A stretch of 64,000 nt of DNA from Coriobacteriales bacterium (GTDB lineage: Bacteria; Actinomycetota; Coriobacteriia; Coriobacteriales; UBA8131), in contig JAISLY010000004.1 in NCBI GenBank assembly GCA_031277035.1, forward strand, positions 26,980 to 90,979. Reading direction: 5' to 3'. Each line of letters begins with the position of its first letter. Within the stretch, counting starts at the first letter, position 1. Positions 24,631 through 42,366 of the stretch are shown here, in pieces. A model generated the notes under the pieces. That model saw nothing but the letters and a program-made list of their open reading frames with translations. It made no database searches and was not told where the DNA came from. Made by a program: the position numbers and the translations under genes.

Positions 24631-24701
24631 GCGTAATGGGGCAGGCGGCATCCAGAACAGTGGAGGCGTGAGCGTAATGGGGCAGGCGGCATCCAGAACA
24701 G
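24631..24701. repeat. 41-bp-period duplication of the xdh translation start region
   Basis: gcgtaatggggcaggcggcatccagaacag occurs at 24631-24660 and 24672-24701. ggaggcgtgagcg is also present at the citrate synthase stop (24537) and at 24663. Confidence 0.9.
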
Positions 24702-26860
24702 CCTCGCACATCTCCCAAAGTGTGGTCAAGAAAGACCATGCGGAGAAGATGGGCGGCACTGCGCTTTATGTGGGAGACTACCCTCAACAGGACATGCTCC
24801 ACGGCGCCCTGGTGCGCTCGCCGCATCCCCATGCCCGCATACAGGACATCCGCTATCCCGAGCTTCCGGCGGGCTATTTTACCGTGGATGCGAGCGATGT
24901 GCCCGGTGAGAACATCGCGCACGTTGTGCTTGATGACTCTTTGGTGTTTGCGGACGGGGAGGTCTTTTTCGTCGGCGACGTGATTGCCATGATTGTCGGT
25001 CCCGACCGCCGAGAGGCCTACCGCCTGGCAAGGGCGACCGACGTTGTGTACGAGCTGCTGCCCGCCGTGTTGACAGTGGCTGACGCACAGGAGTTCTTCT
25101 TTGATTACCGCTATGGCTCCGGCGACGTGCAGGCGGCCTTTGCGGAGGCTGACCACGTGTATGAGGAGGAGTTTGAAACCGGCTATCAGGAGCAGGCGTA
25201 TCTGGAGCCGCAGGGCTTTATCGCCTGTTTTGCGCAGGACGGGGTTCTCACGCTGCACGGCAGCCTGCAATGCCCCTACTACGTAAAGGCCGCGGTCATG
25301 AAGGCGACCGGCCTTGGGTCAAAGGCCGTGCGCATCCAACAGGATCATACGGGCGGCGGCTTTGGCGGCAAGGAAGCGTTTCCCTCGATACTCGGCTGCC
25401 AGGTTGCGATTGCCGCGATGAAGGCCGCAGGGCGCCCCGTCCGTGTCGTTTTCGACCGTCGCGAGGACATGGAGTTTACGAGCAAGCGCCATCCCTCAAA
25501 GAGTCGGTATCGGGCCGCTGTGCGCGATGGGCGGGTGACGGCGCTTGACATCGACGTGCAGTTTGACTCGGGCGCCTTTACCACTCTGAGCCCTGTGGTG
25601 CTGCAACGCGGAATCATTGCGGCTCCGGGCGTCTATCGGGTGCCCAATCTCGCGGTACGGGGGCGTGGTGCTCGCACCAACAAAGTGCCGACCGGTGCGT
25701 TTCGTGGTTTTGGTGCGCCGCAGACCTTCTTTGCCATCGAGCTCATGATGGAGCATATCGCGCGCGATTTGGGCCTTGAGCCGCTGGACTTCAAGCGTGC
25801 GCAGCTGGTGGAGAGGGGCGACGCCACCACTACGGGCGGCCGCTACCACTTTGACGTGCCCCTGCCGCAGATGCTTGCCGACGTGCTCGTTGCAAGTGAC
25901 TACGAGCGCAAACGTGCCCGCTACGCCGAGGAGGCGCGCGTGCGCGCCAAAGGGGCGTGCGAGCGCTCTGAGGAGGCGCGCGCCCGCTTTCGACGGGGCA
26001 TCGGTCTTGCGCTCTGGTTTCATGGCGCCGGGTTTACGGGCAGTGGCGAACGCGACATCATCAAGGGTCGCGCCCGCATCCACAAGAGCGCTGCGGGGCA
26101 GGTGGAAGTGCTTGTCTCGCAATCCGACATCGGCCAGGGCATCAAAACGACGCTCGCCAAGATTGTCGCCTGTGAGCTTGGACTGCCCTATGAGGAGATT
26201 ATCATCAGCAATCCGGACACCGCGCGCGTACCCGACAGCGGCCCGACGGTCGCAAGCCGCAGCCTGATGATTGTCGGCGAGCTGTTGCGTCGTGCCGCCG
26301 TGCGGCTGCGCGAGGAATGGCGCGAGGGGCAGGAGCAGGATGTTGAGGAGCACTTCGTCGAACCCGACTTCCTCGTGCCCTTTGACCTGGAGACCTTCAG
26401 CGGGGATGCCTATCCCACCTATGCCTGGGGGGCGGCCGTCGTCGAGCTTCAGATTGACAGCCTGACTGGCACAAACGAGGTTCTTGGCTGCTGGGCGAGC
26501 CTTGATGTGGGCACGCCCATCGACCAGGCGATTGTGCTTGGACAGATGGAGGGCGGCGTTTTGCAGGGTCTGGGCTATGCCTCGATGGAGCAGATGGCGG
26601 CAGACGCGAGCGGGCGTATCCGCAACAATTCGTACAGCGACTACCTGATCCCAAGCGCCGTCGATGTGCCCGAACTCAAGGTGCAGATGCACGTTACCAA
26701 GTATCCGAATGGCCCCTATGGCGCCGCCGGTGCCGGAGAGGTGCCGCTCGTGGGCCTGCCGCCCGCCTATCTCGCCGCGGCCGAACAGGCTTTGGATGGT
26801 GTGCGGCTGAGTCACATTCCTCTGACTGCGGAAGAAACTTTGAAGGTGATTGTGCGATGA
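24677..26860 (+). CDS. Xanthine dehydrogenase-family molybdopterin-binding subunit
   Basis: Aldehyde oxidase/XDH a/b-hammerhead and Mo-binding domain pattern (GGGFGGKE, FRGFG, GAGE). ATG 24677 is preceded by GGAGG; the track start GTG 24668 is in frame. Confidence 0.88.
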   Translation: MGQAASRTASHISQSVVKKDHAEKMGGTALYVGDYPQQDMLHGALVRSPHPHARIQDIRYPELPAGYFTVDASDVPGENIAHVVLDDSLVFADGEVFFVGDVIAMIVGPDRREAYRLARATDVVYELLPAVLTVADAQEFFFDYRYGSGDVQAAFAEADHVYEEEFETGYQEQAYLEPQGFIACFAQDGVLTLHGSLQCPYYVKAAVMKATGLGSKAVRIQQDHTGGGFGGKEAFPSILGCQVAIAAMKAAGRPVRVVFDRREDMEFTSKRHPSKSRYRAAVRDGRVTALDIDVQFDSGAFTTLSPVVLQRGIIAAPGVYRVPNLAVRGRGARTNKVPTGAFRGFGAPQTFFAIELMMEHIARDLGLEPLDFKRAQLVERGDATTTGGRYHFDVPLPQMLADVLVASDYERKRARYAEEARVRAKGACERSEEARARFRRGIGLALWFHGAGFTGSGERDIIKGRARIHKSAAGQVEVLVSQSDIGQGIKTTLAKIVACELGLPYEEIIISNPDTARVPDSGPTVASRSLMIVGELLRRAAVRLREEWREGQEQDVEEHFVEPDFLVPFDLETFSGDAYPTYAWGAAVVELQIDSLTGTNEVLGCWASLDVGTPIDQAIVLGQMEGGVLQGLGYASMEQMAADASGRIRNNSYSDYLIPSAVDVPELKVQMHVTKYPNGPYGAAGAGEVPLVGLPPAYLAAAEQALDGVRLSHIPLTAEETLKVIVR

Positions 26861-28347
26861 AGACCACCGTCACCTTCCTGCTCAACGGCGAGACGGTCAC
26901 CTGGCGTGGAGACCCGGGCATGAAGCTGCTCGACCTGCTCCGCGACGAACTGGGCATGACCGAGGTAAAGTGCGGCTGTCGAGAAGGCGAGTGCGGCGCG
27001 TGCAGTGTGTTGCTGGACGGCGTGCTGGTGAACAGCTGCCTGGTAGCGGCAGGTCGCGTGGATGCCTGTGCGGTGACGACGCTTGCGGGCCTGCGGACGA
27101 CCGCGCGTTTTGCGGCGCTGGATAAGGCCTTTGCCCGGCACTCCGCCGTGCAGTGCGGCTATTGCATTCCCGGCATGATCCTGGCGGCCGAGGCGCTGCT
27201 TGTGCGCACGCCGCAGCCCAGCGAGGCCGAGATACGCGTGGCCATCAGCGGCAACCTCTGCCGCTGTACCGGCTACAACGCCATCGTCGCTGCGATACGG
27301 GAAGCCGCCGAGGAGCTGGCCGGGGCGGCGGCGGCGGGGGCGGGGGCGGATGCTGTGGCAGGCGATGCGGCGCGTGATGTGGTGGGCGCTGCGGTGGGCG
27401 CTGCGGTGGGCGATGTGGCGAGCGTCGCCCCCGTCGCCCCCGCCGCCGCCCCGGGCGCTGCGGCCCTGTGCCCCACCGCCCTGCCCGAAGCCCTTGAACT
27501 TCTGGCGGCAAAAAACCTCGTTCCCTGCGCCGGCGGCACCGATTTGCTCGCACATGAATACGCGCCGCCCGCCCCTGAGGGCAGCGAACTGCTCTTCGTG
27601 CATCGCATCGGCGAGCTCAAAGCGCTTCGTTGGGAGGGCGACGTACTGCGTATCGGCGCCGGTCTCACCTATGGCGAGCTGCTTGACAGGAGTCAGATTC
27701 CCGAGATTTTGCGTACCGCCATAGCCTCGATTGCGGCGCCCGCAGTGCGCAATGCCGGCACGATAGGCGGCAACCTCGCCAATGCCAGCCCCAAAGGCGA
27801 TGCCGCGCTGGCCTGTTTCGTGACGGACTGCACGCTGCGTCTGGTCAGTGTGCACGGTGAGCGGCTTGTGCCGATTGGGGCATTTTACCAGGGACGCGGG
27901 CGCACCGTGCGCAGACCCGACGAGCTGCTTGTCGAAATCCTGATGCCCACCCGCTGGACGCAGGAGGGTCGATGGACTTTTGAGAAGGTGGGCGGTCGCA
28001 AGGCGCTGGCAATCTCACGCGTCTCCTTCGCGGGGCTTGTCGCCTTCGACATCGACGCAAGCCCCCACGACACCGACGCAAGCCCCCACGGCACCGCGAA
28101 TACCGAGCCCACCATCACCCACCTCGCCACCGCATTTGGCGCCGTGGCGGATGTGGTGGTGCGCCGCCCCGAGATTGACGCGATGCTCATCGGCTGTGCG
28201 CTCACAGAGGCACAGACGCGCATCCCCGAATGGCTCGCCACCTGGGAGGCGGCTCTCCAGCCGGTTCGTGGCAGGGTCTCGGCAGAATACCGCAAGCAGG
28301 TTTGCCTCAACCTGGCTCGCGCTTTTATTGAGAGGAGTCTGTCGTGA
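26857..28347 (+). CDS. Fused [2Fe-2S] (CoxS-like) and FAD-binding (CoxM-like) XDH subunit joined by a Gly/Ala/Val linker
   Basis: CGCREGECGACSV and CGYCIPG...CRCTGY cluster motifs, a low-complexity linker, then AGGTDL and GTIGGNLANASP FAD-domain motifs. ATGA overlap with the upstream gene. Confidence 0.88.
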   Translation: MKTTVTFLLNGETVTWRGDPGMKLLDLLRDELGMTEVKCGCREGECGACSVLLDGVLVNSCLVAAGRVDACAVTTLAGLRTTARFAALDKAFARHSAVQCGYCIPGMILAAEALLVRTPQPSEAEIRVAISGNLCRCTGYNAIVAAIREAAEELAGAAAAGAGADAVAGDAARDVVGAAVGAAVGDVASVAPVAPAAAPGAAALCPTALPEALELLAAKNLVPCAGGTDLLAHEYAPPAPEGSELLFVHRIGELKALRWEGDVLRIGAGLTYGELLDRSQIPEILRTAIASIAAPAVRNAGTIGGNLANASPKGDAALACFVTDCTLRLVSVHGERLVPIGAFYQGRGRTVRRPDELLVEILMPTRWTQEGRWTFEKVGGRKALAISRVSFAGLVAFDIDASPHDTDASPHGTANTEPTITHLATAFGAVADVVVRRPEIDAMLIGCALTEAQTRIPEWLATWEAALQPVRGRVSAEYRKQVCLNLARAFIERSLS

Positions 28348-29819
28348 GCACTTCGTTTGTCTTGAAGGGCGACCTTCTCCAGAGCATCTCGCCAGGCGAA
28401 CTTTCCGTGATTGAGGACGGCTACCTTGTGTGCGTAGAGGGCCTTTCGGCAGGTGCCTTTAGCGAGCTACCCGAACGTTTTGCGGGCCTTGAGCTGCGCG
28501 ATTACACAGGCGCCCTCATTATTCCCGGCCTCGTGGATTTGCATACCCACGCGCCGCAGTACAGCTATCGCGGTACCGGCATGGACCTTGAGCTGCTCGA
28601 CTGGCTTCAGAACTACACCTATCCCGAGGAGGCGCGCTACCGCGACCTCAACTATGCAAAACCAGCCTACGAGGCCTTTGTCGCGCGGCTTGTGGCGGGA
28701 GCGACGACGCGCGTGGCGGTTTTTTCCACGGTGCATGTGCCAGCGACGCTGCTTCTCATGGACCTGTTGGAGCAAAGCGGGCTTGCCTCCTTTGTGGGCA
28801 AGGTGAACATGGACCGCAACGCCCCGGACACACTGCGCGAACCGAGCGCCGCGGCCGCCCTGCAAAGCACCGCCGAGTGGTTGGAGCAGACCGCTGCCCG
28901 CGGCTATCGCCGCACGCGGCCCATTCTCACGCCGCGCTTTATCCCCGCGTGTTCCGATGAACTGATGAGGGGCTTGGGAGCGATGCAGCAGGAATCGTCC
29001 TCTTTTGTCTCCGACACACAGGAATCGTCCCCTTCTTCCCCCTCTGCTGCCCCTCCTTCTGCCCCTCCTTCTGTTCCCGCTTCTGTCCCCGTCCAGAGTC
29101 ACCTCTCCGAGAACCTGCGCGAGATTGAATGGGTGCGCGAGTTGCGACCACAGGCGGCGAGCTATGCCGCGGCCTATTGCGATGACGGCCTGCTCGGTGG
29201 CCCGTCCTGCCCGACGATTATGGCGCACTGCGTGTACCTGGAGCCCGAGGAGGCCGCATTGCTCAAGGCCCGGGGCGTCTGGATTGCGCACTGTGCGGAG
29301 TCCAACACCAATCTGGCCAGCGGCATCGCCCCGGTGCGCAGCTATCTGACAGACGGGCTGCGCGTCGGGCTTGGCACCGATGTCGCGGGAGGCTCAGGTC
29401 TTTCGGTCTTTCGGGCGATGATGCACTCGATACAGGCCTCCAAGCTGCGGTGGCGCTTTGTTGATGAGCGCCTGGCGCCGCTTACCGCAGCCGAGGCCTT
29501 TTATCTGGCGACGCGAGGCGGCGGCAGCTTCTGGGGCAAGGTTGGCGGCTTTGAGGAGGGCTTTGAGTTCGACGCCGTTGTGCTTAACGAGCGCGCCCCG
29601 CAGAGTGCCGCCCCGCTTAACGAGTGCGCCCCGCAGAGTGCCGCCCCGCTTGCCGAGCGCGCCCCGCACGCCGCACGGCCCCTCAGCCCCGCCGAGCACT
29701 CTCCGCACGCCGCACGGCCCCTCAGCCCCGCCGAGCGCCTGGAGCGCCTGATCTATGCCGACGGCGATGCCTGCGTTGTGGAGAAGTATGTGGCCGGCGG
29801 CAGGGTCTGCGCAACATAA
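28344..29819 (+). CDS. guaD: Guanine deaminase (amidohydrolase superfamily) with two repeat insertions
   Basis: PGLVDLHTHAPQYSYRGTG...LLDWLQNYTYPEE, and the HCVYL and GTDVAGG metal ligands. Confidence 0.8.
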   Translation: MSTSFVLKGDLLQSISPGELSVIEDGYLVCVEGLSAGAFSELPERFAGLELRDYTGALIIPGLVDLHTHAPQYSYRGTGMDLELLDWLQNYTYPEEARYRDLNYAKPAYEAFVARLVAGATTRVAVFSTVHVPATLLLMDLLEQSGLASFVGKVNMDRNAPDTLREPSAAAALQSTAEWLEQTAARGYRRTRPILTPRFIPACSDELMRGLGAMQQESSSFVSDTQESSPSSPSAAPPSAPPSVPASVPVQSHLSENLREIEWVRELRPQAASYAAAYCDDGLLGGPSCPTIMAHCVYLEPEEAALLKARGVWIAHCAESNTNLASGIAPVRSYLTDGLRVGLGTDVAGGSGLSVFRAMMHSIQASKLRWRFVDERLAPLTAAEAFYLATRGGGSFWGKVGGFEEGFEFDAVVLNERAPQSAAPLNECAPQSAAPLAERAPHAARPLSPAEHSPHAARPLSPAERLERLIYADGDACVVEKYVAGGRVCAT

Positions 29820-29867
29820 GGCAATAGCGTAAAAAATTTACAGAGCATAAGGAGAAAGCATTACGGG

Positions 29868-29966
29868 GTACGCATCAGTCCTGCGCCTCGAAACGACAGA
29901 TGATGAGCGCAAGCTGCTCAAGGGCCTCCAGAAGTACGCATCAGCCCTGCGCCTCGAAACGACAGA
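29868..29966. repeat. 33-bp direct repeat x2 with 66-bp period (gtacgcatcagYcctgcgcctcgaaacgacaga)
   Basis: Copies at 29868-29900 and 29934-29966, one mismatch. Located upstream of the PLP-enzyme gene. Confidence 0.9.
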
Positions 29967-30079
29967 GCCGTGCCTGCGTAAATCCGGGCACTCTACACCG
30001 ATGCCTTCCTCCAGACATGAGCAGGGTGGCCAATATCTGCTAAAGTGTCACTTCACCCCTACAAAGGAGCGACACGCGT

Positions 30080-31555
30080 ATGATAGACCTCACCATCGAC
30101 AAGAACGGCCTGGCGCATAACATCAAAAAGGCACGCGAGACCGGCGTTGTCATCCCCACCATCGCGCAGATGCAACGCCCCGAGACCATCCCCGCAAAGA
30201 TACGCGAGCGGCTCAAAGGCGTTGGGCTTTGGGACGTAAACCCCTTAAACCTCTTTCGCATCACCTGGAAAAACGAACCTGCGGAGACCGGTGGCCTTTT
30301 TCAGAAAGCCCCCAACTACCTCGAGATACCCCCCGAGCTCTCGGGCGTCCCGGCGCGCATTATTGCGATGGTGGGCAAGTGGTTTCCGACCGGCTGCCAC
30401 AAGGTGGGCGCGTCGTTTGGCTGTCTGGCGCCGCGGCTGGTCACCGGTCAGTTTGACGTGGAGCGGCACAAGGCCGTCTGGCCTTCGACCGGCAACTATT
30501 GTCGCGGCGGGGCCTTTAACTCCAAACTCCTGGGGGCGCAGGGCGTGGCCATTCTGCCCGCAGAGATGAGCCGTGAGCGCTTTGAGTGGCTCCATTCCAT
30601 CGATGCGGAGGTCATTGCCACACCGGGCTGCGAATCCAACGTCAAGGAGATATTTGACAAGACCAACGAGCTGCGACGCGACCCCCACTACATGATTTTC
30701 AACCAGTTTGAGGAGATGGGCAATCCGCTGTGGCATTACAACGTTACGGGCAATGCGTTAGCCGAACTGTTTGAGGCCATCAAGCGACCCGAGGACCGCT
30801 TCGTCGGGGCCTGCTTTACCTCGGGCTCGGCTGGTACGCTTGCCGCCGGCGACCGTCTCAAAGAGCTCTATCCGCAGCTCAAACTGGCCGTGGGCGAGGC
30901 CCTGCAATGCCCGACAATCCTTACCAACGGCTATGGCGGCCACCATATCGAGGGCATCGGCGATAAGCATATCCCCTGGATACACAATGTGCGCACCACC
31001 GACATGGTCATCGACATCGACGATAGCGACACGCTGCACCTGCTGCGACTCTTTAATACCTCCAAGGGCAAAGCCTATCTTCGGCGCGAACTTGGGTATG
31101 ACGACGAAGTCATCGAGCGCTTTACCTGGCTTGGCATCTCAGGGATTGCCAACATCCTGTGCTGCATCAAGATGGCGCGTTACTACGAGCTCGGCGAGCG
31201 CGACGTGGTGGCCACGGTGCTCACCGATTCGGCCGAGATGTACCAGAGTCGCATTCAGGAGATGAAGGCCGAACTTGGCCCGTACAGCGAGCGCCTTGCC
31301 TTTGCCGACCATGAGCGGCGTCTGCTTGGCCAGGGAACTGCGAATATGGCCGAGCTGGACTATTACGGGCGCAAACGCGTGCACAACCTCAAGTATTACA
31401 CCTGGGTTGAGCAGCAGGGCAAAACCGAGCGCGAGCTGAACGCACTGTGGTACGACCCCGAAGGCACCTGGGACAGGGTACACGCGCAGGCTGCCGAGCT
31501 TGACAAGCTCATCGGCGCCTTTAACGACAAGGTGGGCGTGCTGGCAGCACTGTAA
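30080..31555 (+). CDS. Fold-type II (Trp-synthase-beta/cysteine-synthase-like) PLP-dependent enzyme, function unknown
   Basis: Candidate PLP-lysine context FPTGCHKVGASF and a Gly-rich phosphate loop FTSGSAGT. 491 aa with a long C-terminal extension. AAAGGAG RBS. Confidence 0.7.
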   Translation: MIDLTIDKNGLAHNIKKARETGVVIPTIAQMQRPETIPAKIRERLKGVGLWDVNPLNLFRITWKNEPAETGGLFQKAPNYLEIPPELSGVPARIIAMVGKWFPTGCHKVGASFGCLAPRLVTGQFDVERHKAVWPSTGNYCRGGAFNSKLLGAQGVAILPAEMSRERFEWLHSIDAEVIATPGCESNVKEIFDKTNELRRDPHYMIFNQFEEMGNPLWHYNVTGNALAELFEAIKRPEDRFVGACFTSGSAGTLAAGDRLKELYPQLKLAVGEALQCPTILTNGYGGHHIEGIGDKHIPWIHNVRTTDMVIDIDDSDTLHLLRLFNTSKGKAYLRRELGYDDEVIERFTWLGISGIANILCCIKMARYYELGERDVVATVLTDSAEMYQSRIQEMKAELGPYSERLAFADHERRLLGQGTANMAELDYYGRKRVHNLKYYTWVEQQGKTERELNALWYDPEGTWDRVHAQAAELDKLIGAFNDKVGVLAAL

Positions 31556-31632: not shown

Positions 31633-31661
31633 TTGACATCGCGGGCGGCAGGCCGCATACT
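31633..31661 (+). promoter_or_regulatory. Candidate sigma-70-type promoter TTGACA-N17-CATACT upstream of the YheO-type regulator
   Basis: Read directly; it lies in an AT-rich stretch. Confidence 0.35.
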
Positions 31662-31689: not shown

Positions 31690-32394
31690 ATGGACAAGCA
31701 GTCCCGCAAGCGGGAATTCAAACAGCTCAGACCCCTGCTCGACGCGATTGCGGCAGGGATTGCGGGACAGTTCGGCCCCAATTGCGAAGTCGTTGTCCAT
31801 GACATCACCGATGGCCTGGAAAAGACCGTCGCCATCATCTACAACGGCCAGGTGAGTGGACGCAAAATTGGCGACGGAGCCAGCGAGACCGTCCTTGAGG
31901 CGCTCAGGAACAACGACATACGCGACCGCTATGGCTACTTTACCAACACCCGGGACGGGCGGATGCTCAAATCCACGACCATCAACATCCGGGGTACCGA
32001 CGGCACCGTCCTCGCCGCCATCTGCATCAATTTTGACATCAGCGACCTTGCCCTTGCCGCCCGTTCGCTCAACGAGTTTCTGGCTGCCGAGGAGCCGCCC
32101 ACACCGCTTGGGGCCGAGGCGATTTCGAGCAATGTCAACGAACTGCTCGACCAGCTTATCGAGGAGTCGCATCGCTACATCGGCAAGCCCATTGCGGCGA
32201 TGACCCGCCAGGACAAGACCGAGGCCATTCGCTATCTGGACCGCAAAGGCGCACTGCTCATCAAGAAAAGCTCGGAGCGCATCGCCCGGTATTACGGCAT
32301 CTCAAAATATACGCTCTACAACTATCTGGGCGAGACGGCAAAAGAGAAAGAAGCGCCGACGCCCGCCTTTGGTCACGGCCCGAATGACGGATAA
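31690..32394 (+). CDS. YheO-like transcriptional regulator (PAS-like N-domain + C-terminal HTH)
   Basis: FGPNCEVVVHDIT...IYNGQVSGRKIGD and a C-terminal ARYYGISKYTLYNYL helix-turn-helix. Confidence 0.75.
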   Translation: MDKQSRKREFKQLRPLLDAIAAGIAGQFGPNCEVVVHDITDGLEKTVAIIYNGQVSGRKIGDGASETVLEALRNNDIRDRYGYFTNTRDGRMLKSTTINIRGTDGTVLAAICINFDISDLALAARSLNEFLAAEEPPTPLGAEAISSNVNELLDQLIEESHRYIGKPIAAMTRQDKTEAIRYLDRKGALLIKKSSERIARYYGISKYTLYNYLGETAKEKEAPTPAFGHGPNDG

Positions 32395-32404
32395 GGAGAA
32401 CTTC

Positions 32405-33673
32405 ATGCGCGAACCCATCAACACACGCGAGCCCATCAGCACACGCGAACCCATCAGCACACGCGAGCCTATCAAATGGACGCCGAACACCATGCCGCAC
32501 TTCGATGGCGGCCTGAGCCTTGCAAACCTGCTTTCGCGTGAGGAGATTGAGAAGGCGCGGGCGTTTCACCGCTCAATACCGGGCTATCTCGCCACGCCGC
32601 TTGCCAAGCTCGACCACCTGGCGGCCCATCTCGGTGTGCGGGGCATCTACGTCAAGGACGAGTCGCGCCGCTTTAATCTCAAGTCCTTCAAGATGCTCGG
32701 GGCCTCCTACGCGGTCGCTCGATATATCGCCCAGCGCCTCGACACGGACATCGCCGAACTCAGCTACGAGGACATTGTTTCGCCCGAGACGAGGGAAAAG
32801 CTCGGGCAGATTACCTTTTATGCCGCCACGGATGGCAATCATGGGCGCGCTGTTGCCTGGGCGGCCAGTCGTCTGGGGCAGAAATCGGTCGTCTGCATGC
32901 CAGCCGGCAGTTCATTGGCACGGCTTGAGAACATTCGGGCGGAGGGCGCTGAGGCGTGGATTACCGAGCTGAACTACGATGACGCCATCCGCTACGTCAA
33001 ACAGCTTGCCGAGCGCGATGAGAACGGCGTTGTCATTCAGGACACCACCTGGCCGGGCTACGAGGACATCCCCGGATGGATCATGCAGGGCTACTGCGGC
33101 ATGGCCGAGGAGGCCGACGAGCAGTTGCGGCTTTATGGCGAGGATCGCCCCACACATGTCTTTGTGCAGGCAGGCGTTGGTGCTCTGGCTGGCGCTGTGC
33201 AGGGCTATTACGCGAACACCTACGGCGAAGATTGCCCCATCACGACCATCGTCGAGGCCTCAGCCGCCGACTGCGTCTATCGCTCCGCTCTGGCAAACGA
33301 ACGAGTCCGGGTGGAGGGGGAGATGAACACGATGATGGCCGGTCTGGCCTGCGGTGAGGTCTGCTCGCTTTCCTGGGACGTGCTCAAGGCCAAAGCGAGC
33401 TTTTTTGTCTCCGCTCCCGACTGGGTAACCGCGCGCGGCATGCGTGTGCTGGCCGCCCCCCTGCGCGGCGATGAGTCGGTCGTCTCGGGGGAGTCGGGCG
33501 CGGTTGGTCTCGGGCTTGTCTCCATCGTGCTTACCAGCCCGGACTACGCCGATTTTCGCGCGGCGCTGAAGCTGGATGAGCATTCCGTAATCATGTGCTT
33601 TTCCACCGAGGGCAATACCGACCCCGAGGCCTGGCGCCGCATCGTCTGGGACGGGCTGTGCCCCTCCTATTGA
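32405..33673 (+). CDS. ygeX: Diaminopropionate ammonia-lyase family PLP enzyme
   Basis: FKMLGASYAV (PLP Lys) and ATDGNHGRAVAWAA. ATG 32405 follows AAGGAGA. The N-terminus has REPI(N/S)T repeats. Confidence 0.85.
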   Translation: MREPINTREPISTREPISTREPIKWTPNTMPHFDGGLSLANLLSREEIEKARAFHRSIPGYLATPLAKLDHLAAHLGVRGIYVKDESRRFNLKSFKMLGASYAVARYIAQRLDTDIAELSYEDIVSPETREKLGQITFYAATDGNHGRAVAWAASRLGQKSVVCMPAGSSLARLENIRAEGAEAWITELNYDDAIRYVKQLAERDENGVVIQDTTWPGYEDIPGWIMQGYCGMAEEADEQLRLYGEDRPTHVFVQAGVGALAGAVQGYYANTYGEDCPITTIVEASAADCVYRSALANERVRVEGEMNTMMAGLACGEVCSLSWDVLKAKASFFVSAPDWVTARGMRVLAAPLRGDESVVSGESGAVGLGLVSIVLTSPDYADFRAALKLDEHSVIMCFSTEGNTDPEAWRRIVWDGLCPSY

Positions 33674-33690: not shown

Positions 33691-33820
33691 GCCGACCGCC
33701 CCACCGAGGGCACCACTGCCCCACCGACTGACGCACCACTGCCCCACTGCCTGCCCCACCGCTCGACCGCCCCACCGCCCCACTGCCCGCCCCACCGACC
33801 GACGCCCCACCGAGGGCACC
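33691..33820. repeat. C-rich low-complexity array (gccccaccg units) in the ygeY leader
   Basis: Read directly. Both ends share ccccaccgagggcacc. Confidence 0.8.
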
Positions 33821-33842
33821 GAAAGGATTTTTGGAGGAAACT

Positions 33843-35222
33843 ATGGATTTTGCGGCACTTGAACAACAGGCGCAGAGCTATCGCGCCCAGATGACGGCCT
33901 TTCTCCGCGACCTGATCCGTCTGCCCGGCGAGAGCACCTTTGAGGAGCCCACGGCACGCCGAATCGTCCAGGAGATGGAGCAGCTTGGTTTTGACGAGGC
34001 TCGCATCGACGCGATGGGCAATGTCATCGGCTCTGTGGGCGTGGGCGCGCGCCTTATCGCCTATGACGGGCATATCGATACGGTCGGCGTCGGCAAGAGG
34101 GAAAACTGGGACTTCGACCCCTTTGAGGGCTTCGAAACTGAGGCCGAGATTGGCGGGCGCGGCGCATCCGACCAGCTCGGAGGCATCGTCTCTGCGGTCT
34201 ATGGCGCGCGCATCATGAAGGATCTCGGACTGCTTGACGACCGCTATCGGGTGATGGTGACCGGCACGGTGCAGGAGGAGGATTGCGACGGCCTGTGCTG
34301 GGAATACCTCATCAGGGAGGAGGGCATCCGGCCTGAGTTCGTCGTGCTCACCGAGCCGACCGACCAGGGCATCTATCGCGGCCATCGGGGACGCATGGAG
34401 ATACGCGTTGAGGTTGGTGGCCTGAGCTGCCACGGCAGTGCGCCTGAGCGCGGCGATAACGCCATCTACAAGATGGCGCGTATTCTCACCGAGGTCGAGG
34501 CGCTCAATGCCAGGCTGAAGGATGATGCCTTCCTCGGTAAGGGCACGCTGGCAGTCTCCGAGATATTCTTCACCTCACCCTCACGCTGTGCCGTGGCTGA
34601 CAGCTGCGCCATCTCCATCGACCGCCGCCTGACCGACGGGGAGACCTACCTGGACGCGCTTGAGGAAATCAGGGCTTTGCCGAGCGTGCAGAAATACGGT
34701 GCCGAGGTCTCGATGTATACCTATGAACGCCCCAGCTATACGGGGCTCGTCTATCCGATTGACTGCTACTTTCCCACCTGGGTCATCCCCGCCACAGCCG
34801 GGCCCGTCCGTGCCGCCGTGGCCGCGCATCGCGGCCTGTACGGCGAGCCGCGTGTGGGCAAATGGACCTTCTCGACCAACGGCGTGAGCATCATGGGGCG
34901 CAACAACATCCCCTGTATCGGCTTTGGGCCGGGCAGGGAGGCCCAGGCGCACGCCCCCAACGAGCGCACCTGGAAAGACGAGCTCGTGCGCTGTGCCGCC
35001 GTCTACGCCGCCATCCCCACGCTGTATCTGGAAGGCGAGACGGAGAGCAGCGCGGGTGCAGACGTGGGTGCAGGTGCAGGTGCGGACGCGGGCGCAACGA
35101 ACAGTGCGGGTACAGGCGCGGACGCAACGAGCGGCACGGGCGCAACGAGCGGCGCGGACGCAACAAGCGGCGCGGACGCAACGAGCGCAACGAACAAGGA
35201 ACAGGAAGGAACGCACGCATGA
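33843..35222 (+). CDS. ygeY: YgeY-family M20 metallohydrolase with a ~55-aa Gly/Ala/Thr tail
   Basis: M20 pattern ([36 protein letters not shown]). ATG 33843 follows GGAGGA. Confidence 0.85.
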
Positions 35223-36412
35223 GCAATATCGACAGCTATCTTAATCGCCTACGTACGCTTGATTTTGCAGGCATGTACGACAATGACTTCTTTCTCACCT
35301 GGGAAAAGACCACCGACGAACTGCTCGCGACTTTTACGCTCGCCGACGCGCTCAGGGAGCTGCGAACCCGAAACATCTCCGCCCGCGTCTTTGCGAGCGG
35401 TCTTGCCGTCTCGCTGTTTCGCGACAACTCCACGCGCACGCGTTTCTCCTTTGCCTCGGCCTGCAACCTGTTGGGTCTTGCGGTTCAAGACCTCGACGAG
35501 GGCACATCGCAGATTGCGCACGGCGAGACGGTACGCGAGACCGCGAACATGGTCTCGTTTATGGCTGATGTCGTGGGCATCCGCGACGATATGTATATCG
35601 GCAGGGGCGACGCCTATCAGCGCGAGGTCGCCGCGGCTTTGCGTGAGGGCTTTGACGAGGGTACGCTTGAGCAGCGCCCGACGCTCGTGAATCTGCAAAG
35701 CGACCTCGATCACCCCACGCAGACGATGGCCGACCTCAACCATCTCATCCACCATTTTGGCGGTGTTGAGCAGCTGCGCGGCAAGAAAATCGCCATGACC
35801 TGGGCCTATTCGCCCTCCTACGGCAAACCGCTTTCTGTGCCGCAGGGTGTCATCGGTCTCATGACCCGCTTTGGCATGGAGGTCGTCCTGGCTCACCCGG
35901 AAGGCTACGAGGTCATGCCCGAGGTGGAGGAGCTGGCCGCCCGGCAGGCGCGTGAGAGCGGCGGCTCCTTTACGCGGGCGGCCTCGATGGCCGAGGCCTT
36001 TGAGGGCGCCGACGTGGTCTATCCCAAAAGCTGGGCACCCTTTGCCGCCATGAAGCAGCGCACCAGCCTGTATGACCAGGGCGATGCAGGCGGGGTTGCT
36101 GAGCTGGAAAAGGAGCTGCTCGCGCAAAACGCCCTCCATAGGGACTGGGAGGCGAACGAGACCCTGATGGAGACGACCAAGGCTGGTCAGGGGCTGTATC
36201 TGCACTGTCTGCCGGCTGACATCAGCGGGGTGAGCTGTGCGGCCGGCGAGGTCGCCGCATCGGTTTTTGAGCGTTTTCGCCCCTCTCTGTACCAGGAGGC
36301 GAGCCATAAGCCCTACCTCATCGCGGCGATGATCCTGCTTGCGAAGCTGGAAGACCCCCTCGGCTCCCTCGCCGGCCGCACCGTTGCCACCCATCCCCGT
36401 TTCGCGGCATGA
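35219..36412 (+). CDS. ygeW: Knotted carbamoyltransferase YgeW family
   Basis: N-terminus [11 protein letters not shown]...[15 protein letters not shown] carbamoyl-phosphate motif and HCLPA. ATGA overlap with ygeY. Confidence 0.88.
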
Positions 36413-37458
36413 GCACGAGGAGGGACAGACGCCGTGTCGTCGTCGCGCTCGGCGGTAACGCGCTCGGCGACAATCTTGACGAGCAGATGCGCGCGGCCCA
36501 GATTGCGGCAAATGCCATTGTCGAGATCGTCGAGGCGGACTGGGAGCTCGTCCTCGTGCATGGCAACGGCCCGCAGGTGGGCATGATTGAGACCGCCTTT
36601 GAAGTCGCCGCCCGCGTCGAAGCCGACCGAGTCCGCGCCGAGGCCCGCGCCGAGCCCCGCGCCGAGCCCGCGCCCACGCCCACCGGCGCCACGCCCGCGC
36701 CCACGTCAGCGCCCCGGCCGCAGACCGCCTTCTCCGTCCTGCCGATGTCGGTCTGCGTCGCGCTCAGCCAGGGCTACATCGGCTACGACCTGCAAAATGT
36801 CCTGCGTCGCACCTTCGAAGTGCGGGGCCTTTCCACGCCGGTGGCGACGATTATCACCCAGGTGCTCGTCGACCCCAACGACCCGGCCTTTCACAACCCC
36901 GCCAAGCCGATTGGCGGCTTTATGAGCGAAGCAGAGGCCGCTCATCTGCGCTCAGAAGGCGTTGCCGTGATGGAGGACAGCGGACGCGGCTGGCGGCGCG
37001 TCGTCGCCTCGCCCGAGCCCGTGGACATTCTTGAGGCCAAGACGGTACAGGCGATGCTTGCGGCGGGGCAGGTACCTATCGCCTGCGGCGGCGGCGGCAT
37101 CCCGGTCGCGCTGATTGAGGGGCGCTATCATGGACAGACAGCGGTTGTGGACAAGGACCTTGCCGCGGCCAAGCTGGCCGAGTGCATCGACGCCGACCTT
37201 CTCATCATCCTGACCGCTGTCGAGCAGGTTTACCTTGACTTTGGGACCTCGTCACAACGCGCGATTGACCGGATGGATGTCGAGGAAGCCGAGCGCCTGC
37301 TTCTTGCGGGGCAGTTTGCGAAAGGCTCGATGGAGCCGAAGATTGAGGCAGCCGTGCGCTTTGTGCGGTCGGGCAGAGGCCGCGAGGTCGTAATCGCTGA
37401 TCTCAGGCAGGCACGGGCCGCTATCGAAGGCGCGGCGGGCACGCGGATTGTCGCGTAG
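36409..37458 (+). CDS. arcC: Carbamate kinase with a repeat insertion
   Basis: VVALGGNALG, HGNGPQVG, GGGGIPV and VVDKDLAAA motifs. Confidence 0.9.
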   Translation: MSTRRDRRRVVVALGGNALGDNLDEQMRAAQIAANAIVEIVEADWELVLVHGNGPQVGMIETAFEVAARVEADRVRAEARAEPRAEPAPTPTGATPAPTSAPRPQTAFSVLPMSVCVALSQGYIGYDLQNVLRRTFEVRGLSTPVATIITQVLVDPNDPAFHNPAKPIGGFMSEAEAAHLRSEGVAVMEDSGRGWRRVVASPEPVDILEAKTVQAMLAAGQVPIACGGGGIPVALIEGRYHGQTAVVDKDLAAAKLAECIDADLLIILTAVEQVYLDFGTSSQRAIDRMDVEEAERLLLAGQFAKGSMEPKIEAAVRFVRSGRGREVVIADLRQARAAIEGAAGTRIVA

Positions 37459-37663: not shown

Positions 37664-40600
37664 ATGAGCGAAATCATGCGGCCGATGTCTTTCAGCGAGC
37701 TGATGGAGCATGCGCTGAGCGACTACGAACACTCAGGCGCTCTGTTCGGCGTACGGCCGGACAAGTTCTATCGCGCCGACGGACGAGAAGCAAGCCCCCG
37801 CACCCTCTTTGGCCTGCCGCTGGCCACACCCATCGGCCCTGCCGCCGGCCCAGGCTCGCAACTGGCCGGCAACATCCTTGCCGCCTACCTTGCAGGCGCG
37901 CGTTTCATCGAGCTCAAGACCGTGCAAACGATGGACGGCGATGAGCTGCGCGCCGCGGTGGCGCGTCCCTGCATCAATGCGACCGACGAGGGCTACAACG
38001 TCGAATGGTCCACCGAACTGACGGTGCAACAGGCGCTGGAGCAATATATCTACGCCTGGCTTGCGGTGTCTGCGTTTGGCATTGAACTCGACCTTCCCGC
38101 CGGCGTCATCTTCAATATGAGCGTGGGTTACAGCCTTGAGGGCATCCAGTCAACAAAGGTGGATTCCTTTTTGGAGGGCATGAAGAACGCCTCTGAGACA
38201 GCGGCCTGGGCTGAAGGCATCGACTGGCTGACGCGCAACATCGGGCGCTTCTCACGTCTGCGGCAGGCCGATGTGCAGGCCATCACGCCGCATATCTCAA
38301 ACAGCGTAACCCTCTCGACCCTGCATGGCTGTCCGGCTGATGAGATCGAGCGCATCGCGCAGTATCTTTTGACGGAAAAACGCCTGCACACCTCTGTGAA
38401 GTGCAACCCGACCCTGCTTGGCTATGACACGGCCCGTGCGCTGCTTGACGGTCTGGGCTATGACTATGTGGACTTTGACGAGCATCACTTTGTTGAGGAT
38501 CTGCAATTCGACGACGCGGTGGCGATGTTCGGTCGGCTCATGGCGCTCAGCGCGGCGTCGGGCCAGGCCACCGGTGCCAAGATAACGAACACCTTCCCCG
38601 TGCGGATACTGCGCGGGGAGCTGCCCGGCGAGGAGATGTATATGAGCGGGCGGGCCCTCTTCCCGCTCTCGATTACCGTGGCTGCCCGGCTTGCCGCCGC
38701 GACAGGCGGGCGTCTGCCCATTTCCTATTCGGGCGGTGCCGACGCCTTTAATCTCACGGCAATCCTTGAGACGGGCATCTTTCCGGTGACCATGGCGACG
38801 ACCCTGCTCAAGCCCGGCGGCTACGAACGGCTGCATCAACTGGCAGGGATTGCGACGGCATGCGTCCCCACCGTGGCCCGGCCTGGCAGCTCCGAGACCC
38901 CGGACACCCCGGGTCGGTCTGGCAGCTCCGAGAACCCGGACAGCCCAGGCCGGCCTGGCAGCTCCGCGTCCGACACCTCGCTCGACGTTGCGGCCCTTGA
39001 GGCCCTCGCAATCCGCGTGACACAGGCCTCTGGCGACGACGTGCTCTCCCGTCATCGCAAGGCGTATCGGGCCACAGGCACCGCCGCCGCAACTTCCGCA
39101 GCTTCCACCACCACCGCAACTTCCACAACTTCGCCCGCATCGCCGCACGCACCTTCCGCAACTTCCGCAGCTTCCACCATCACCACCGCAACTTCCGCAG
39201 CTTCTGCGGCCGCGCACGCAACTGCGCACACGACGTCGCGCAAGTCGGCCGAGCCGCTGCCTCTGTTCGACTGCGCCCAGGCGCCCTGCGCACATCCTGC
39301 AGCGAGCGGCGGTTGTCCCATCGAGCAACAGATTGGCGCCTATCTTGAGCAGGTTGCGAAGGGCGACTGGGCGCAGGCCTTCTCCATCATCGTCAACGAC
39401 AACGTCCTGCCCTCGATAACGGGCGCCATCTGTGACCACCAGTGCCAGAATCGCTGTACGCGCCTGGACTGCGACGACCCGCTCCTCATCCGGGCCGCCA
39501 AGAAGGCCGCCGCCGCCGAGGCTCAGTCCGCCCATATCGCCGCCCTTGCAGCTGGCTCTGCCCCCGCCCTGCAAAGCAGCGCGCGCGTACTCGTCATCGG
39601 CGCCGGCCCGGCCGGCCTGGCGGCGGCGGCCTATCTGCGCCGCAACGGTGTGGCGGTTGAGGTGCGTGAACAGCGTGCGCGTCCGCTGGGCGCTGTTGCT
39701 GCAACCATCCCCTCCTTTCGCATCAGCGACGAGGAACTGGCGCTGGATGCGGCCCTTATCGAGGCCTGGGGTGTCAGCGTTGAGTATGGTGCCAATCCCG
39801 TCTACGACCTTGCGGCGCTCAGGGAGCACTACGACTTCGTCATTATCGCCACCGGTGCTCAGGGGCAGGGACGAAGCGATCTTGTGCCCGATGGCGAGCG
39901 GGTCTTTGACGCGCTGGACTTCCTTGAACGCTCCAAAGCCACCGGCCTTACGCTTGAGCTTGGTCGACGCGTGGCGGTCATTGGCGGCGGCGATGTGGCC
40001 ATGGACTGCGCGCGCGCGGCCGCTCGCAATGTGGGCGTTTTGGAGGCCGTGGTTGTCTATCGACGCACCCGCGCCCAGATGCCGGCCCAGCGCGAGGAGC
40101 TCGAGGCGGCCTGGGCCGAGGGCGTGCGCTGTATCGAACTGCACGCGCCACGCGCCTTTGACAAGGGCATACTGAGCTGCGATGTCATGGAACTGGGCGC
40201 GGTGGATGCCAGCGGACGTCGCGGAATCATACCCTGTGGACAAAGGGCCGAGCTTGCCTTTGACACCGTGATCAACGCGGTTGGCGCCGTCGTGGACTAT
40301 GAGCCGATGGTCGCCTGCGGCATCGAGTTTGAGGAGAACGGCCGTCCGCGCCTGAGCGCGACCAACGAAAGTTCCCTTCCCGGCGTCTATCTGGCTGGCG
40401 ATTGCAAGGCGGGGCCCAAGACGGTCATCAAAGCGATGGCCGACGCCAAGCTCGTCGCACGCGACATTCTCGCGCGTCTCGCACTGAGTTCCGATTTTCG
40501 CGCATTTGAACTTGAGGCCTGTCGCGAGGAACTTCTCACGAAGAAAGGTGTCCTCAGGGCCGCTGCCTCAGGAGATGCCCGCCTGGATGCCCGCCGTTGT

Positions 40601-41029
40601 CTGGGATGCGGAGCGGTCTGCGAGATATGTGTGGACGTCTGCCCCAACCGTGCGAATACGGTTCAGGCCGGGCAGATTCTTCACCTCGACCGGCTGTGTA
40701 ACGAGTGCGGCAACTGCGGCGTCTTTTGCCCGACGGGCGGGGATCCCTATCGGGACAAACTCACGCTGTTTTCCACGGAGGAGGATTTTTCTCACAGCGA
40801 TAACCGCGGCTTCTTGCCTCTGGCCCACGGAGGGTATAAGCTGCGCCTTGAAGATGGCCGGATTATCGAAGCAGGCCTTGATGATCCTGCCGTGCCCTCA
40901 TCGTTTGTCGTGACGATACGCGCCGCGCTCAGCCACGCAGAAACAGGGCATACGGGAGGCCTGCATACCGCCGAGGGACCTGCGGGAAGTCTACACGTCG
41001 GCACGACACGGACAGGAGGCCTGGGATGA
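37664..41029 (+). CDS. ygfK: YgfK-family oxidoreductase (DPD-like domain + FAD/NAD(P) domain + 4Fe-4S), so-called putative selenate reductase subunit
   Basis: N-terminus MSEIMRPMSFSELMEHAL, VIGAGPAGLAAA dinucleotide fold, C-terminal Cys clusters CxxCxxxCxxC and CNECGNCGVFCP. Two long low-complexity insertions. Confidence 0.85.
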   Translation: MSEIMRPMSFSELMEHALSDYEHSGALFGVRPDKFYRADGREASPRTLFGLPLATPIGPAAGPGSQLAGNILAAYLAGARFIELKTVQTMDGDELRAAVARPCINATDEGYNVEWSTELTVQQALEQYIYAWLAVSAFGIELDLPAGVIFNMSVGYSLEGIQSTKVDSFLEGMKNASETAAWAEGIDWLTRNIGRFSRLRQADVQAITPHISNSVTLSTLHGCPADEIERIAQYLLTEKRLHTSVKCNPTLLGYDTARALLDGLGYDYVDFDEHHFVEDLQFDDAVAMFGRLMALSAASGQATGAKITNTFPVRILRGELPGEEMYMSGRALFPLSITVAARLAAATGGRLPISYSGGADAFNLTAILETGIFPVTMATTLLKPGGYERLHQLAGIATACVPTVARPGSSETPDTPGRSGSSENPDSPGRPGSSASDTSLDVAALEALAIRVTQASGDDVLSRHRKAYRATGTAAATSAASTTTATSTTSPASPHAPSATSAASTITTATSAASAAAHATAHTTSRKSAEPLPLFDCAQAPCAHPAASGGCPIEQQIGAYLEQVAKGDWAQAFSIIVNDNVLPSITGAICDHQCQNRCTRLDCDDPLLIRAAKKAAAAEAQSAHIAALAAGSAPALQSSARVLVIGAGPAGLAAAAYLRRNGVAVEVREQRARPLGAVAATIPSFRISDEELALDAALIEAWGVSVEYGANPVYDLAALREHYDFVIIATGAQGQGRSDLVPDGERVFDALDFLERSKATGLTLELGRRVAVIGGGDVAMDCARAAARNVGVLEAVVVYRRTRAQMPAQREELEAAWAEGVRCIELHAPRAFDKGILSCDVMELGAVDASGRRGIIPCGQRAELAFDTVINAVGAVVDYEPMVACGIEFEENGRPRLSATNESSLPGVYLAGDCKAGPKTVIKAMADAKLVARDILARLALSSDFRAFELEACREELLTKKGVLRAAASGDARLDARRCLGCGAVCEICVDVCPNRANTVQAGQILHLDRLCNECGNCGVFCPTGGDPYRDKLTLFSTEEDFSHSDNRGFLPLAHGGYKLRLEDGRIIEAGLDDPAVPSSFVVTIRAALSHAETGHTGGLHTAEGPAGSLHVGTTRTGGLG

Positions 41030-42366
41030 GCACCTTGATCACCAACGCGACCCTCATCACACGCGACGCGCAGGACACGGTCATACCCGACGGAGGTGGA
41101 GCCCTCGCCTTTGAAGGAGCGCTCATCACCGATGTCGGTTCTGCGGCTGAGCTGGAGGCGCGCTATCCCGAGGCCGAGCGCATCGACGCCCGGGGACGTC
41201 TGGTCATGCCCGGCCTTATCAACACCCATATGCACTACTACTCCACCTTTGCGCGCGGCATCGACTTTGGCTCTCGGCCCGCGACCACCTTTGGCGAGGT
41301 GCTCAGTGGGCTGTGGTGGCGGCTCGATAAGATGCTGACGCTTGAGGACGTGTATTACAGCGCCGTGGGCCCGATGATTGACTGTGTGCGCAATGGCGTG
41401 ACAACGGTCATCGACCACCATGCAAGCCCGAGTTCCGTACGCGACAGCCTGCTGGTCATTGCAAAGGCTGCGCAGCGGATTGGCATACGTTCCAACCTCT
41501 GCTACGAGGTAAGTGATCGGGATGGCGAGGAGGTCGCGAAGGCGGGCATTGCAGAAAACGCCGCATTCGTGCGCAGCTGTCAGCAGGCCAACGACGACAT
41601 GCTGCGAGGGCTTATGGGCGTGCACGCACAGATGACCATCTCGCAGCCTACGATGGACGCGCTTGTCGCTGAGGCCGAGAGTCTGGGCGTCGGCTATCAC
41701 ATCCACGCGGCCGAGGGTATCGAGGACGTGGTGAACTCGCTTGGCACATACGGGCGCCGCGTTATCGAGCGGCTCTCCGATAACGGCATCCTCAACGAAC
41801 GCTCGATTGTCGTGCACTGCGTGCAGGTGCTCGACGAGGAGATTGAGCTGCTCGCGCACAGCGGGGTGGCGGTTATCAACAATCCGGAGAGCAACATGAG
41901 CAATGCCGTGGGGGCCTCGCCGGTTCTTAAAATGCTCGCTGCCGGCGTGCTTGTGGGCATGGGCACCGACGGCTACTGCACCGACATGACCGAGAGTCTG
42001 CGCGGCGTGCATGCGCTGGTCAAACACGAAGCGCGTATCCCCTCGGTGGGTTGGGCCGAGCCGCCCCGCATGCTCTTTGAGAACAACCGCACAATCATAA
42101 ACCGCCTGCTCGTCAACGGCCATACCGGAGTGCTTGAGCCGGGGGCGTACGCAGACCTCATCATCGTCGATTACGAGGCACCCACACCGGTGAGCGCAAA
42201 GACCATAAACAGTCACATCCTGTTTGGCGTCATGGGACGCTCTGTGGCCACAACCATCATAAACGGGCGTATCGTGATGCGCGAACGCGAGCTGGTCGAT
42301 ATTGACGAGGAGAAGATCATGGCGGTCTCGCGCGAGCAGGCTGCCCGTCTGTGGAGCAGGATCTGA
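41026..42366 (+). CDS. ssnA: SsnA-family amidohydrolase
   Basis: PGLINTHMHYYSTFARG, HAAEG, and HCV...GTDG metal ligands. Confidence 0.85.
   Translation: MSTLITNATLITRDAQDTVIPDGGGALAFEGALITDVGSAAELEARYPEAERIDARGRLVMPGLINTHMHYYSTFARGIDFGSRPATTFGEVLSGLWWRLDKMLTLEDVYYSAVGPMIDCVRNGVTTVIDHHASPSSVRDSLLVIAKAAQRIGIRSNLCYEVSDRDGEEVAKAGIAENAAFVRSCQQANDDMLRGLMGVHAQMTISQPTMDALVAEAESLGVGYHIHAAEGIEDVVNSLGTYGRRVIERLSDNGILNERSIVVHCVQVLDEEIELLAHSGVAVINNPESNMSNAVGASPVLKMLAAGVLVGMGTDGYCTDMTESLRGVHALVKHEARIPSVGWAEPPRMLFENNRTIINRLLVNGHTGVLEPGAYADLIIVDYEAPTPVSAKTINSHILFGVMGRSVATTIINGRIVMRERELVDIDEEKIMAVSREQAARLWSRI

Follow-up and report, generated by a model that had tools for sequence, protein, structure and literature searches.

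We report on a 64,000-nucleotide stretch of a Coriobacteriales bacterium (positions 26,980 to 90,979 of contig JAISLY010000004.1; hereafter the window), and specifically on one gene in its uric acid (urate) degradation cluster that encodes a cysteine-synthase-like (CysK-like) enzyme dependent on pyridoxal 5'-phosphate (PLP). The gene order of the cluster is classical xanthine dehydrogenase (XDH), guaD, the PLP gene, yheO, ygeX, ygeY, ygeW, carbamate kinase, ygfK, ssnA and an XdhD-type hydroxylase (Table 1), and every one of ygeX, ygeY, ygeW, ygfK, ssnA and xdhD scores above its own curated cut-off. The genome is a metagenome-assembled genome (MAG), 72.7% complete, with two ordinary CysK-like genes elsewhere. 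Our data suggest that the PLP enzyme belongs to the last steps of the urate pathway.

The open reading frame (ORF) runs on the + strand from an ATG at 30080 to the stop at 31555, encodes 491 amino acids and is a real gene. A ribosome binding site (AAAGGAG) lies at 30064-30070, 9 nt before the ATG, and the start at 30080 was judged right because homologues have the same N-terminus, MIDLT. An initial annotation, made from the sequence alone, had placed the gene between guaD and the gene of a YheO-type regulator and had given it a leader of its own with a 33-bp direct repeat, and on both points we agree: the 260-nt spacer upstream contains two copies that are 32/33 identical and 66 nt apart from start to start (0 expected by chance), with no further copies elsewhere in the window. 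A Rfam scan of leader and gene gave no family match, and a promoter and terminator scan upstream of the gene returned nothing convincing.

The protein matches PF00291 (PALP) over residues 123-326 with 41 bits against a gathering threshold of 35. Among the NCBIfam models cysK is the nearest, with 86, 83 and 34 bits for TIGR01139, TIGR01136 and TIGR01138 against cut-offs of 351, 344 and 394, respectively, and the cut-offs of the SbnA model TIGR03945 (35 bits vs 350) and of the cystathionine beta-synthase (CBS) model (53 vs 510) were missed as well. By these scores the protein does not appear to be a plain cysteine synthase. Nor is it a family-level homologue of the YgeX/DpaL lyase (approximately 12 bits for TIGR01747/NF006058, cut-off 276), and in place of the two-base site of YgeX (K77/D120, TDGNHG) it has a loop, STGNY, without Asp. 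Among proteins of solved structure, cysteine synthases come closest (E = 7e-19, residues 133-324). An AlphaFold2 model computed from a 35-sequence alignment reached a predicted local distance difference test score (pLDDT) of 95.3 and a predicted template modelling score (pTM) of 0.94; when compared using Foldseek, only its core (approximately residues 85-392) matches CysK, CBS and beta-cyanoalanine synthase, with template modelling (TM) scores of 0.8-0.86 by target and 0.53-0.57 by query. The extra sequence, approximately 75-85 residues at the N-terminus and approximately 100 at the C-terminus (395-491), is all helical, and both extensions match no solved structure in the Foldseek search of the PDB. 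The initial annotation was right about a fold-type II PLP enzyme with a CysK/TrpB-like core and a candidate lysine, and its C-terminal extension of approximately 150 residues gives way to this split between the two ends.

The proposed PLP lysine is K108 in FPTGCHKVGASF (GCHKVGAS), which varies little or not at all among the family members; its GCHKVG context we take to be nearer to that of TrpB than to the SVKDR of CysK. Other conserved motifs are the carboxylate loop STGNY (136-140), Q209, the phosphate loop SGSAGT (248-253) and GIS (352-354, with S354), and conservation is at least 90% for K108, SGSAGT and GIS, each of which aligns with its counterpart in CysK. As judged from these residues, the protein is catalytically equipped. 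The most conserved residues of the family include parts of the extensions (NLFRITWKNEP near 57-67 and RKRxHNLKYYTWVEQQG near 430-447), which probably contribute to the active site or to an interface. Basic residues are among those conserved in the extensions (R60 and the RKRxHNLK stretch at 430-438).

The likeness to the CysK/CysM and CysK/CBS clade (beta-cyanoalanine synthase, the CBS core, SbnA and DcsD, with the DcsD structure 3X44 among the matches) extends to the core fold at 20-26% identity and to the equivalent positions of the PLP lysine, the Asn-loop, the Gln and the glycine-rich phosphate loop. However, CysK and CysM are single-domain proteins of approximately 300-320 residues with an SxKDR lysine motif and a role in sulfur assimilation, whereas the present enzyme has 491 residues, GCHKVGAS and a context of urate catabolism. 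The native chemistry of the CysK clade is beta-elimination or beta-replacement via a PLP-aminoacrylate, and O-ureido-L-serine synthase (DcsD) illustrates that the clade is able to handle ureido compounds.

A word-indexed search returned 8000 scored relatives, of which the best 120 are all approximately 491 residues long, 66-79% identical to the window protein and mostly from Oscillospiraceae, with generic names ("pyridoxal-phosphate dependent enzyme", "cysteine synthase"). Confirmed relatives, 55-79% identical over residues 1-491, were found in at least 590 species in a species-level genome scan; the carrier assemblies are labelled Oscillospiraceae, Lachnospiraceae, Christensenellaceae, Ruminococcus, Flavonifractor, Anaerotignum, Blautia and others, and are mostly gut Clostridia. 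Cultured carriers include Pusillibacter faecalis, Butyricicoccus porcorum, Flavonifractor sp. An306 and Anaerotignum sp. MSJ-24. An exhaustive representative search gave 313 clusters at E ≤ 1e-30. None of ten distant members scanned reaches a curated family, and the ESM Atlas held generic names only. OrtB, the beta subunit of 2-amino-4-ketopentanoate thiolase, is another long fold-type II enzyme of Clostridia and would have a small OrtA partner gene upstream; in the loci no small conserved OrtA-like ORF precedes the PLP gene.

The initial annotation had tied the gene to the purine cluster, and across genomes the co-occurrence is strong: SsnA and YgeW were each present, over curated cut-offs, in 45 of 50 carrier species genomes, including Christensenellaceae-type genomes in which the PLP gene sits beside unrelated genes. 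Of 299 evenly drawn Clostridia genomes (each at least 90% complete), 5 were carriers and 17 had SsnA, and SsnA was found in 4/5 carriers vs 13/294 non-carriers (approximately 4%). For the neighbourhoods, the ORFs of 84 loci were clustered by all-against-all BLAST. A YheO regulator gene lies directly upstream of the PLP gene in 39/84 loci, often overlapping its start, and a gene for a threonine-synthase-like (ThrC-like) protein of approximately 414 residues is present in 54 of the 72 loci having room downstream, directly adjacent and on the same strand in 35. The divergent neighbours are ygeY (34 loci), ygeW (32) and carbamate kinase (30), plus a Bmp-type ABC transporter, and a unit of yheO, the PLP gene and the ThrC-like gene divergent from ygeY-ygeW-arcC is found in 34/84 loci. 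Four distant members (55-60% identical) are part of operons on one strand that read ygeW-xdhD-ThrC-like gene-PLP gene-ygeY-ygfK-amidohydrolase-ssnA-XDH.

Several loci have other arrangements. In two of them (L057 4819-13489 and L045 636-8536) the PLP gene ends an operon with GntR, a Zn-dehydrogenase-like protein and a TRAP transporter (DctPQM), with a dynamin-like GTPase next; these genomes have YgeX and lack SsnA, YgeW and the ThrC-like protein, and the TRAP context hints at an imported substrate. The closest relative (P0005, 79% identical; L112 2212-7741) follows MOSC, NifS-like desulfurase, NifU and Rrf2 genes and precedes a YfiH/Cu-oxidase_4 gene, and there are no urate genes on its 8.6-kb unplaced metagenome contig. 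In the Christensenellaceae-type genomes G294, G298, G300, G292 and G295 the pair is split, such that the ThrC-like gene is directly beside ssnA and the CysK-like gene is elsewhere, beside DUF3810, glucose-6-phosphate isomerase or an M20 peptidase.

The distribution of YgeX ties the enzyme to one stage of the pathway. Among the random Clostridia genomes that encode SsnA or an SsnA-like protein, the non-carriers have YgeX in 16/16 cases, usually beside ssnA, and the ThrC-like protein in 0/16, vs 0/5 and 5/5, respectively, for the carriers (Fisher p = 5e-5, uncorrected for kinship). Among 80 carriers the ThrC-like paralogue is present in 72 and YgeX in 18, and YgeX occurs in 5/8 carriers without the ThrC-like protein vs 13/72 with it (p = 0.012); the other three of the eight, which lack YgeX too, are MAGs of unknown completeness. 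Strict exclusivity of the two was rejected, since 13 of the 72 genomes have both. The window represents a sixth hybrid, i.e. a CysK-like gene together with YgeX and with no ThrC-like gene found in the 72.7%-complete assembly; a ThrC-family query against the whole of this assembly detected no threonine synthase homologue, the best matches being the two CysK-like genes (E approximately 1e-4). The window ygeX fills the operon slot that in most carriers is held by the ThrC-derived paralogue.

The ThrC-like partner, which is not the gene present in the window, resembles threonine synthase (Thermus thermophilus 1UIM, Aquifex 2ZSJ) in its fold, its PLP lysine motif and its N-terminal Cys4 ribbon; unlike these it no longer has four of the phosphate-binding residues, and an Asp has been gained. 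The substitutions T88A, S155A, R160L and N188D (alignment with T. thermophilus 1UIM) are invariant in 54/54 copies, at positions that we take, from the structural papers, to be phosphate ligands. With the four ligands replaced the partner is therefore not a threonine synthase, and a housekeeping role was rejected also because a second, longer ThrC is present in 5/5 genomes checked. The Asp in the former phosphate site suggests a pocket that would suit a cationic amine. In public records the gene is labelled threonine synthase (e.g. L062 11619-12917), and the Cys4 ribbon at its N-terminus is conserved. A complex prediction for a CysK-like protein and its natural ThrC-like neighbour (locus L014) scored 0.00; it gives no verdict and was used neither way.

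Among the 80 carriers the CysK-like gene is almost never without a lyase-type partner, and YgeX can replace the ThrC-like protein, so on the simplest reading the ThrC-like protein and YgeX are functional analogues. The same reading has the CysK-like enzyme do something else at the same stage, dispensable in YgeX-only organisms such as E. coli, and the enzyme is probably not a simple equivalent of YgeX. The two share the PLP fold type II, a place beside ygeY and ygeW and, in SsnA-pathway Clostridia, a complementary distribution of YgeX and the CysK-like module, yet they are not family-level homologues and they coexist in the window. In relation to the pairs of YgeX-less clusters, the window protein corresponds to the CysK-like half (55-79% identity, same length and motifs, same association with ygeY, ygeW, ssnA and yheO); the window differs in having YgeX in place of the ThrC-like half and in its host, a Coriobacteriales MAG.

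In the published pathway, as given in PMC12990295 and in 10.1101/2025.05.19.654654, YgeW and YgeY make 2,3-diaminopropionate (DAP), which YgeX converts to pyruvate. The D-configuration of the C3 intermediate is a proposal, and is raised as an open point in PMC12990295. In the results section of 10.1101/2025.05.19.654654, YgeX is the sole enzyme named under PF00291, and a term search of the 2022 preprints and of the other 2025 pathway paper found no mention of a PLP, cysteine-synthase-like or threonine-synthase-like enzyme.

With moderate confidence we therefore favour the view, drawn from distribution and gene order, that the CysK-like protein is a pathway-specific fold-type II PLP enzyme of reductive (2,8-dioxopurine) uric acid degradation, which would act at the terminal C3 amino acid stage together with a DAP-lyase-type partner. 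Its substrate would be an alpha-amino acid that is free and nitrogen-substituted at C-beta, i.e. DAP, as supplied by YgeW and YgeY, or the 3-ureido precursor albizziin. The enzyme might work in series or in parallel with the partner, which would be the threonine-synthase-derived paralogue in most genomes and canonical YgeX in the window. Provided that this view is right, a beta-elimination or beta-replacement releasing NH3 or urea would be the reaction that we lean towards, an inversion of the proposed D-configured intermediate such that an L-specific lyase could finish is a weaker candidate, and some other reaction would be a minor one. The initial annotation suggested an elimination or replacement on a ring-opened intermediate, and for a beta-substituted alanine this would still be the most natural chemistry. 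Its broader proposal of a missing or alternative step survives in part, in that the linkage to purine genes stands and the distribution points to the terminal diaminopropionate/YgeX stage, while a missing hydantoinase step falls away (see below).

A number of observations weigh against this view. Most of the genomes in our counts are MAGs, only five carriers occur in the random sample and four of these have the same gene order, such that the complementarity statistics overstate independence. The gene is also found in unrelated contexts, namely serC-serA (4 loci), dapF-dapL-pyrG, DUF3810/PGI (PGI, phosphoglucose isomerase), GntR-dehydrogenase-TRAP (two genomes) and, for the closest relative, MOSC-NifS-NifU-Rrf2. 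In the window, a ThrC-like gene might lie in the unassembled part of the 72.7%-complete MAG, and the YgeX beside the enzyme retains both catalytic bases, so a role as lyase or racemase could be redundant here. Moreover, E. coli runs the pathway without a CysK-like enzyme (10.1101/2025.05.19.654654), as does C. sporogenes, and the enzyme is thus not essential to the chemistry as described. Literature on the CysK-like family was not found, nor was a biochemical or genetic datum for any member.

Some of these points leave room for an assimilatory branch, in which the ThrC-like protein (or YgeX) is the sole DAP lyase and the CysK-like protein is a beta-replacement synthase, co-inherited with the module and unneeded for urate catabolism, that converts a C3 intermediate (DAP, serine, O-phosphoserine or O-acetylserine) into serine, cysteine or another beta-substituted alanine during growth on purines. 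Beta-replacement is native to the CysK clade, serC-serA-like genes adjoin the gene in four loci (in one of them with ygeX 3.4 kb downstream), the closest relative sits after Rrf2-NifU-NifS, and the pathway of E. coli manages without such an enzyme. Such a branch would, however, leave the absence of the gene from 16/16 YgeX-type SsnA genomes and the pairing with the ThrC-like gene unexplained; the genome already has its two ordinary CysK-like genes, and in the compact catabolic operons the gene lies mid-operon between xdhD and ygeY. We regard it as rather unlikely. A supply of sulfur or selenium, where the enzyme would make cysteine or selenocysteine for the NifS-like loading of the labile S/Se ligand of XdhD-type enzymes, appears to us improbable to a higher degree. 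It would agree with the CysK-like core, with the co-occurrence with clusters dependent on selenium-dependent Mo hydroxylases and with the MOSC, NifS-like desulfurase, NifU and Rrf2 genes that adjoin the gene of the sister sequence P0005, but this last context was seen once, and the cofactor is equally required in SsnA/XdhD genomes that do without the gene (16/16 in the sample, 70/250 in the class of the window). Furthermore, it predicts no relation to YgeX, yet the relation is strong.

The initial annotation had stressed that no hydantoinase is present, and this applies to the window, where none was found, though not to the genome: contig C55 encodes a D-hydantoinase (TIGR02033, 526 vs 393 bits), and hydantoinase-like genes lie within 10 kb of the PLP gene in 12/80 related loci. 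The C55 gene (L111 12697-14136) follows an ECF-type transporter operon that comprises a 557-residue protein without Pfam match, a double ABC ATPase and CbiQ (region 7843-14136), and no pyrimidine or purine cluster surrounds it. A role in place of a missing hydantoinase, or on an earlier ring-opened intermediate (such as ureidomethyl-hydantoin or 2,3-diureidopropionate), would suit a gene embedded in a hydantoinase-less cluster, but with the C55 enzyme and the 12 loci the idea is not sustained. According to the structures in 10.1101/2025.05.19.654654, the intermediates handled by the hydantoinase have no free alpha-amino group. The earlier intermediates therefore offer nothing for an external aldimine and hence for PLP chemistry, and a PLP enzyme cannot hydrolyse hydantoin, so we rejected this replacement as very improbable. 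Equally hard to credit is an ordinary cysteine synthase or CBS placed in the cluster by chance, to which public names of relatives ("cysteine synthase", JGI) and the best PDB and NCBIfam matches (CysK) might point, given 86 bits vs 351 for cysK, approximately 180 extra conserved residues, HKVG instead of SVKDR, 65-79% identity across Clostridia families with conserved synteny with urate genes, and two ordinary CysK-like genes elsewhere in the genome.

Within the window's class the gene is an exception, being present in 0/250 sampled genomes, of which 70 have SsnA. A tree computed using MAFFT and FastTree places the window protein within a group from assemblies that bear the labels Oscillibacter, Dysosmobacter and Butyricicoccus; support for the wider clade of 33 members is 0.995, and the sister of the window protein is the unplaced metagenome sequence (79% identity). 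In a related genome of this order, hyuA-arcC-ygeW-ygeY-ygeX is followed first by yheO and next by xdhD-ygfK-ssnA, and the PLP gene is absent. Together the data make horizontal acquisition from Clostridia likely as far as sequence comparison can tell, and the GC content shows no anomaly. The cluster proteins (24668-45161) are 44-62% identical to those of same-order relatives (G090, G005, G247), and their similarity to the versions found in Clostridia is equal or higher (maximum 55% for SsnA, 73% for YgeY and 72% for YgeW), so more than the PLP gene may be of foreign origin.

The remaining features of the locus are listed in Table 1. According to the initial annotation, every cluster member except the PLP enzyme has a counterpart in the ygeW region of E. 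coli; this does not hold, as that region presumably uses YgeV and the YheO-type regulator would thus have no counterpart there either. A near-consensus promoter-like site (TTGACA, 17 nt, CATACT) is located at 31633-31661, within the 134 nt that separate the PLP gene from yheO, and the regulator and ygeX may have their own promoter there. The window YgeX retains the lysine of SFKMLGAS and the aspartate of TDGNHG, and its true start is probably downstream of 32369. Many of the cluster genes contain short GC-rich tandem repeats, because of which the guaD and arcC profile matches fall into two stretches; there are none in the PLP gene.

Table 1. Features of the urate cluster in the window (HMM, hidden Markov model; positions are those of the window)
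Feature	Position	Strand	Basis or remark
Classical XDH, Mo subunit	24668-26860	+	upstream of the PLP gene
Classical XDH, Fe-S/FAD subunit	26857-28347	+	upstream of the PLP gene
Guanine deaminase (guaD)	28344-29819	+	HMM
GC-rich tandem repeats in guaD, two arrays	29031-29091, 29582-29738		
Spacer 5' of the PLP gene, 260 nt, with ribosome binding site AAAGGAG	29820-30079	+	sequence scan
33-nt direct repeat, copy 1, candidate operator	29868-29900	+	repeat search
33-nt direct repeat, copy 2	29934-29966	+	repeat search
CysK-like fold-type II PLP enzyme, helical extensions at both ends	30080-31555	+	HMMs, AlphaFold2 model, alignments
YheO-type regulator	31690-32394	+	PAS_6 and HTH_22
YgeX/DpaL, 2,3-diaminopropionate ammonia-lyase	32369-33673	+	TIGR03528, 570 bits vs 532
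GC-rich tandem repeat, 5' end of the ygeX ORF, 18-nt units	32408-32475		would encode REPI(N/S)T repeats if translated
GC-rich tandem repeats, ygeX-ygeY spacer	33698-33812		
YgeY, M20 ureido hydrolase	33831-35222	+	TIGR03526, 640 bits
GC-rich tandem repeats, 3' end of ygeY	35115-35193		
YgeW, knotted carbamoyltransferase	35219-36412	+	TIGR03316, 699 bits; listed ORF from 34862, real start near 35219
Carbamate kinase (arcC)	36409-37458	+	HMM
GC-rich tandem repeats in arcC	36627-36714		
YgfK, flavin/Fe-S reductase of 2,8-dioxopurine	37664-41029	+	HMM
SsnA, ring-opening amidohydrolase	41026-42366	+	HMM
XdhD-type selenium-dependent molybdenum hydroxylase	42351-45161	+	HMM

The gene is conserved and uncharacterised and is best viewed as a novel variation on the final stage of an established pathway, and new here is the hybrid of CysK-like enzyme and YgeX in a Coriobacteriales genome whose class is otherwise without the gene (0/250). 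It took until 2025 for the anaerobic urate pathway to be worked out, and probiotics against hyperuricaemia and gout are now being engineered with it. About a quarter of the SsnA-positive genomes in the random sample carry the CysK-like enzyme, as do at least 590 species overall, usually with the remodelled threonine synthase; by these counts a large share of pathway-bearing gut Clostridia is without YgeX, and surveys with ygeX as marker therefore miss them. It is possible, though we would not expect it, that the reaction is new to the CysK clade and would settle an open point of the pathway such as the D-configuration of the C3 intermediates, and that, with the ThrC descendant, it is the main exit of urate carbon in hundreds of YgeX-less gut species of Oscillospiraceae, Lachnospiraceae and Christensenellaceae; candidates may be the first CysK-fold racemase or a stereo-inverting beta-exchanger for DAP or albizziin, or an exit that releases urea or forms serine or phosphoserine. 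The hybrid in the window separates the role of the CysK-like enzyme from that of the ThrC-like partner and provides, with the CysK-like enzyme and YgeX, a simple two-protein system for experiments.

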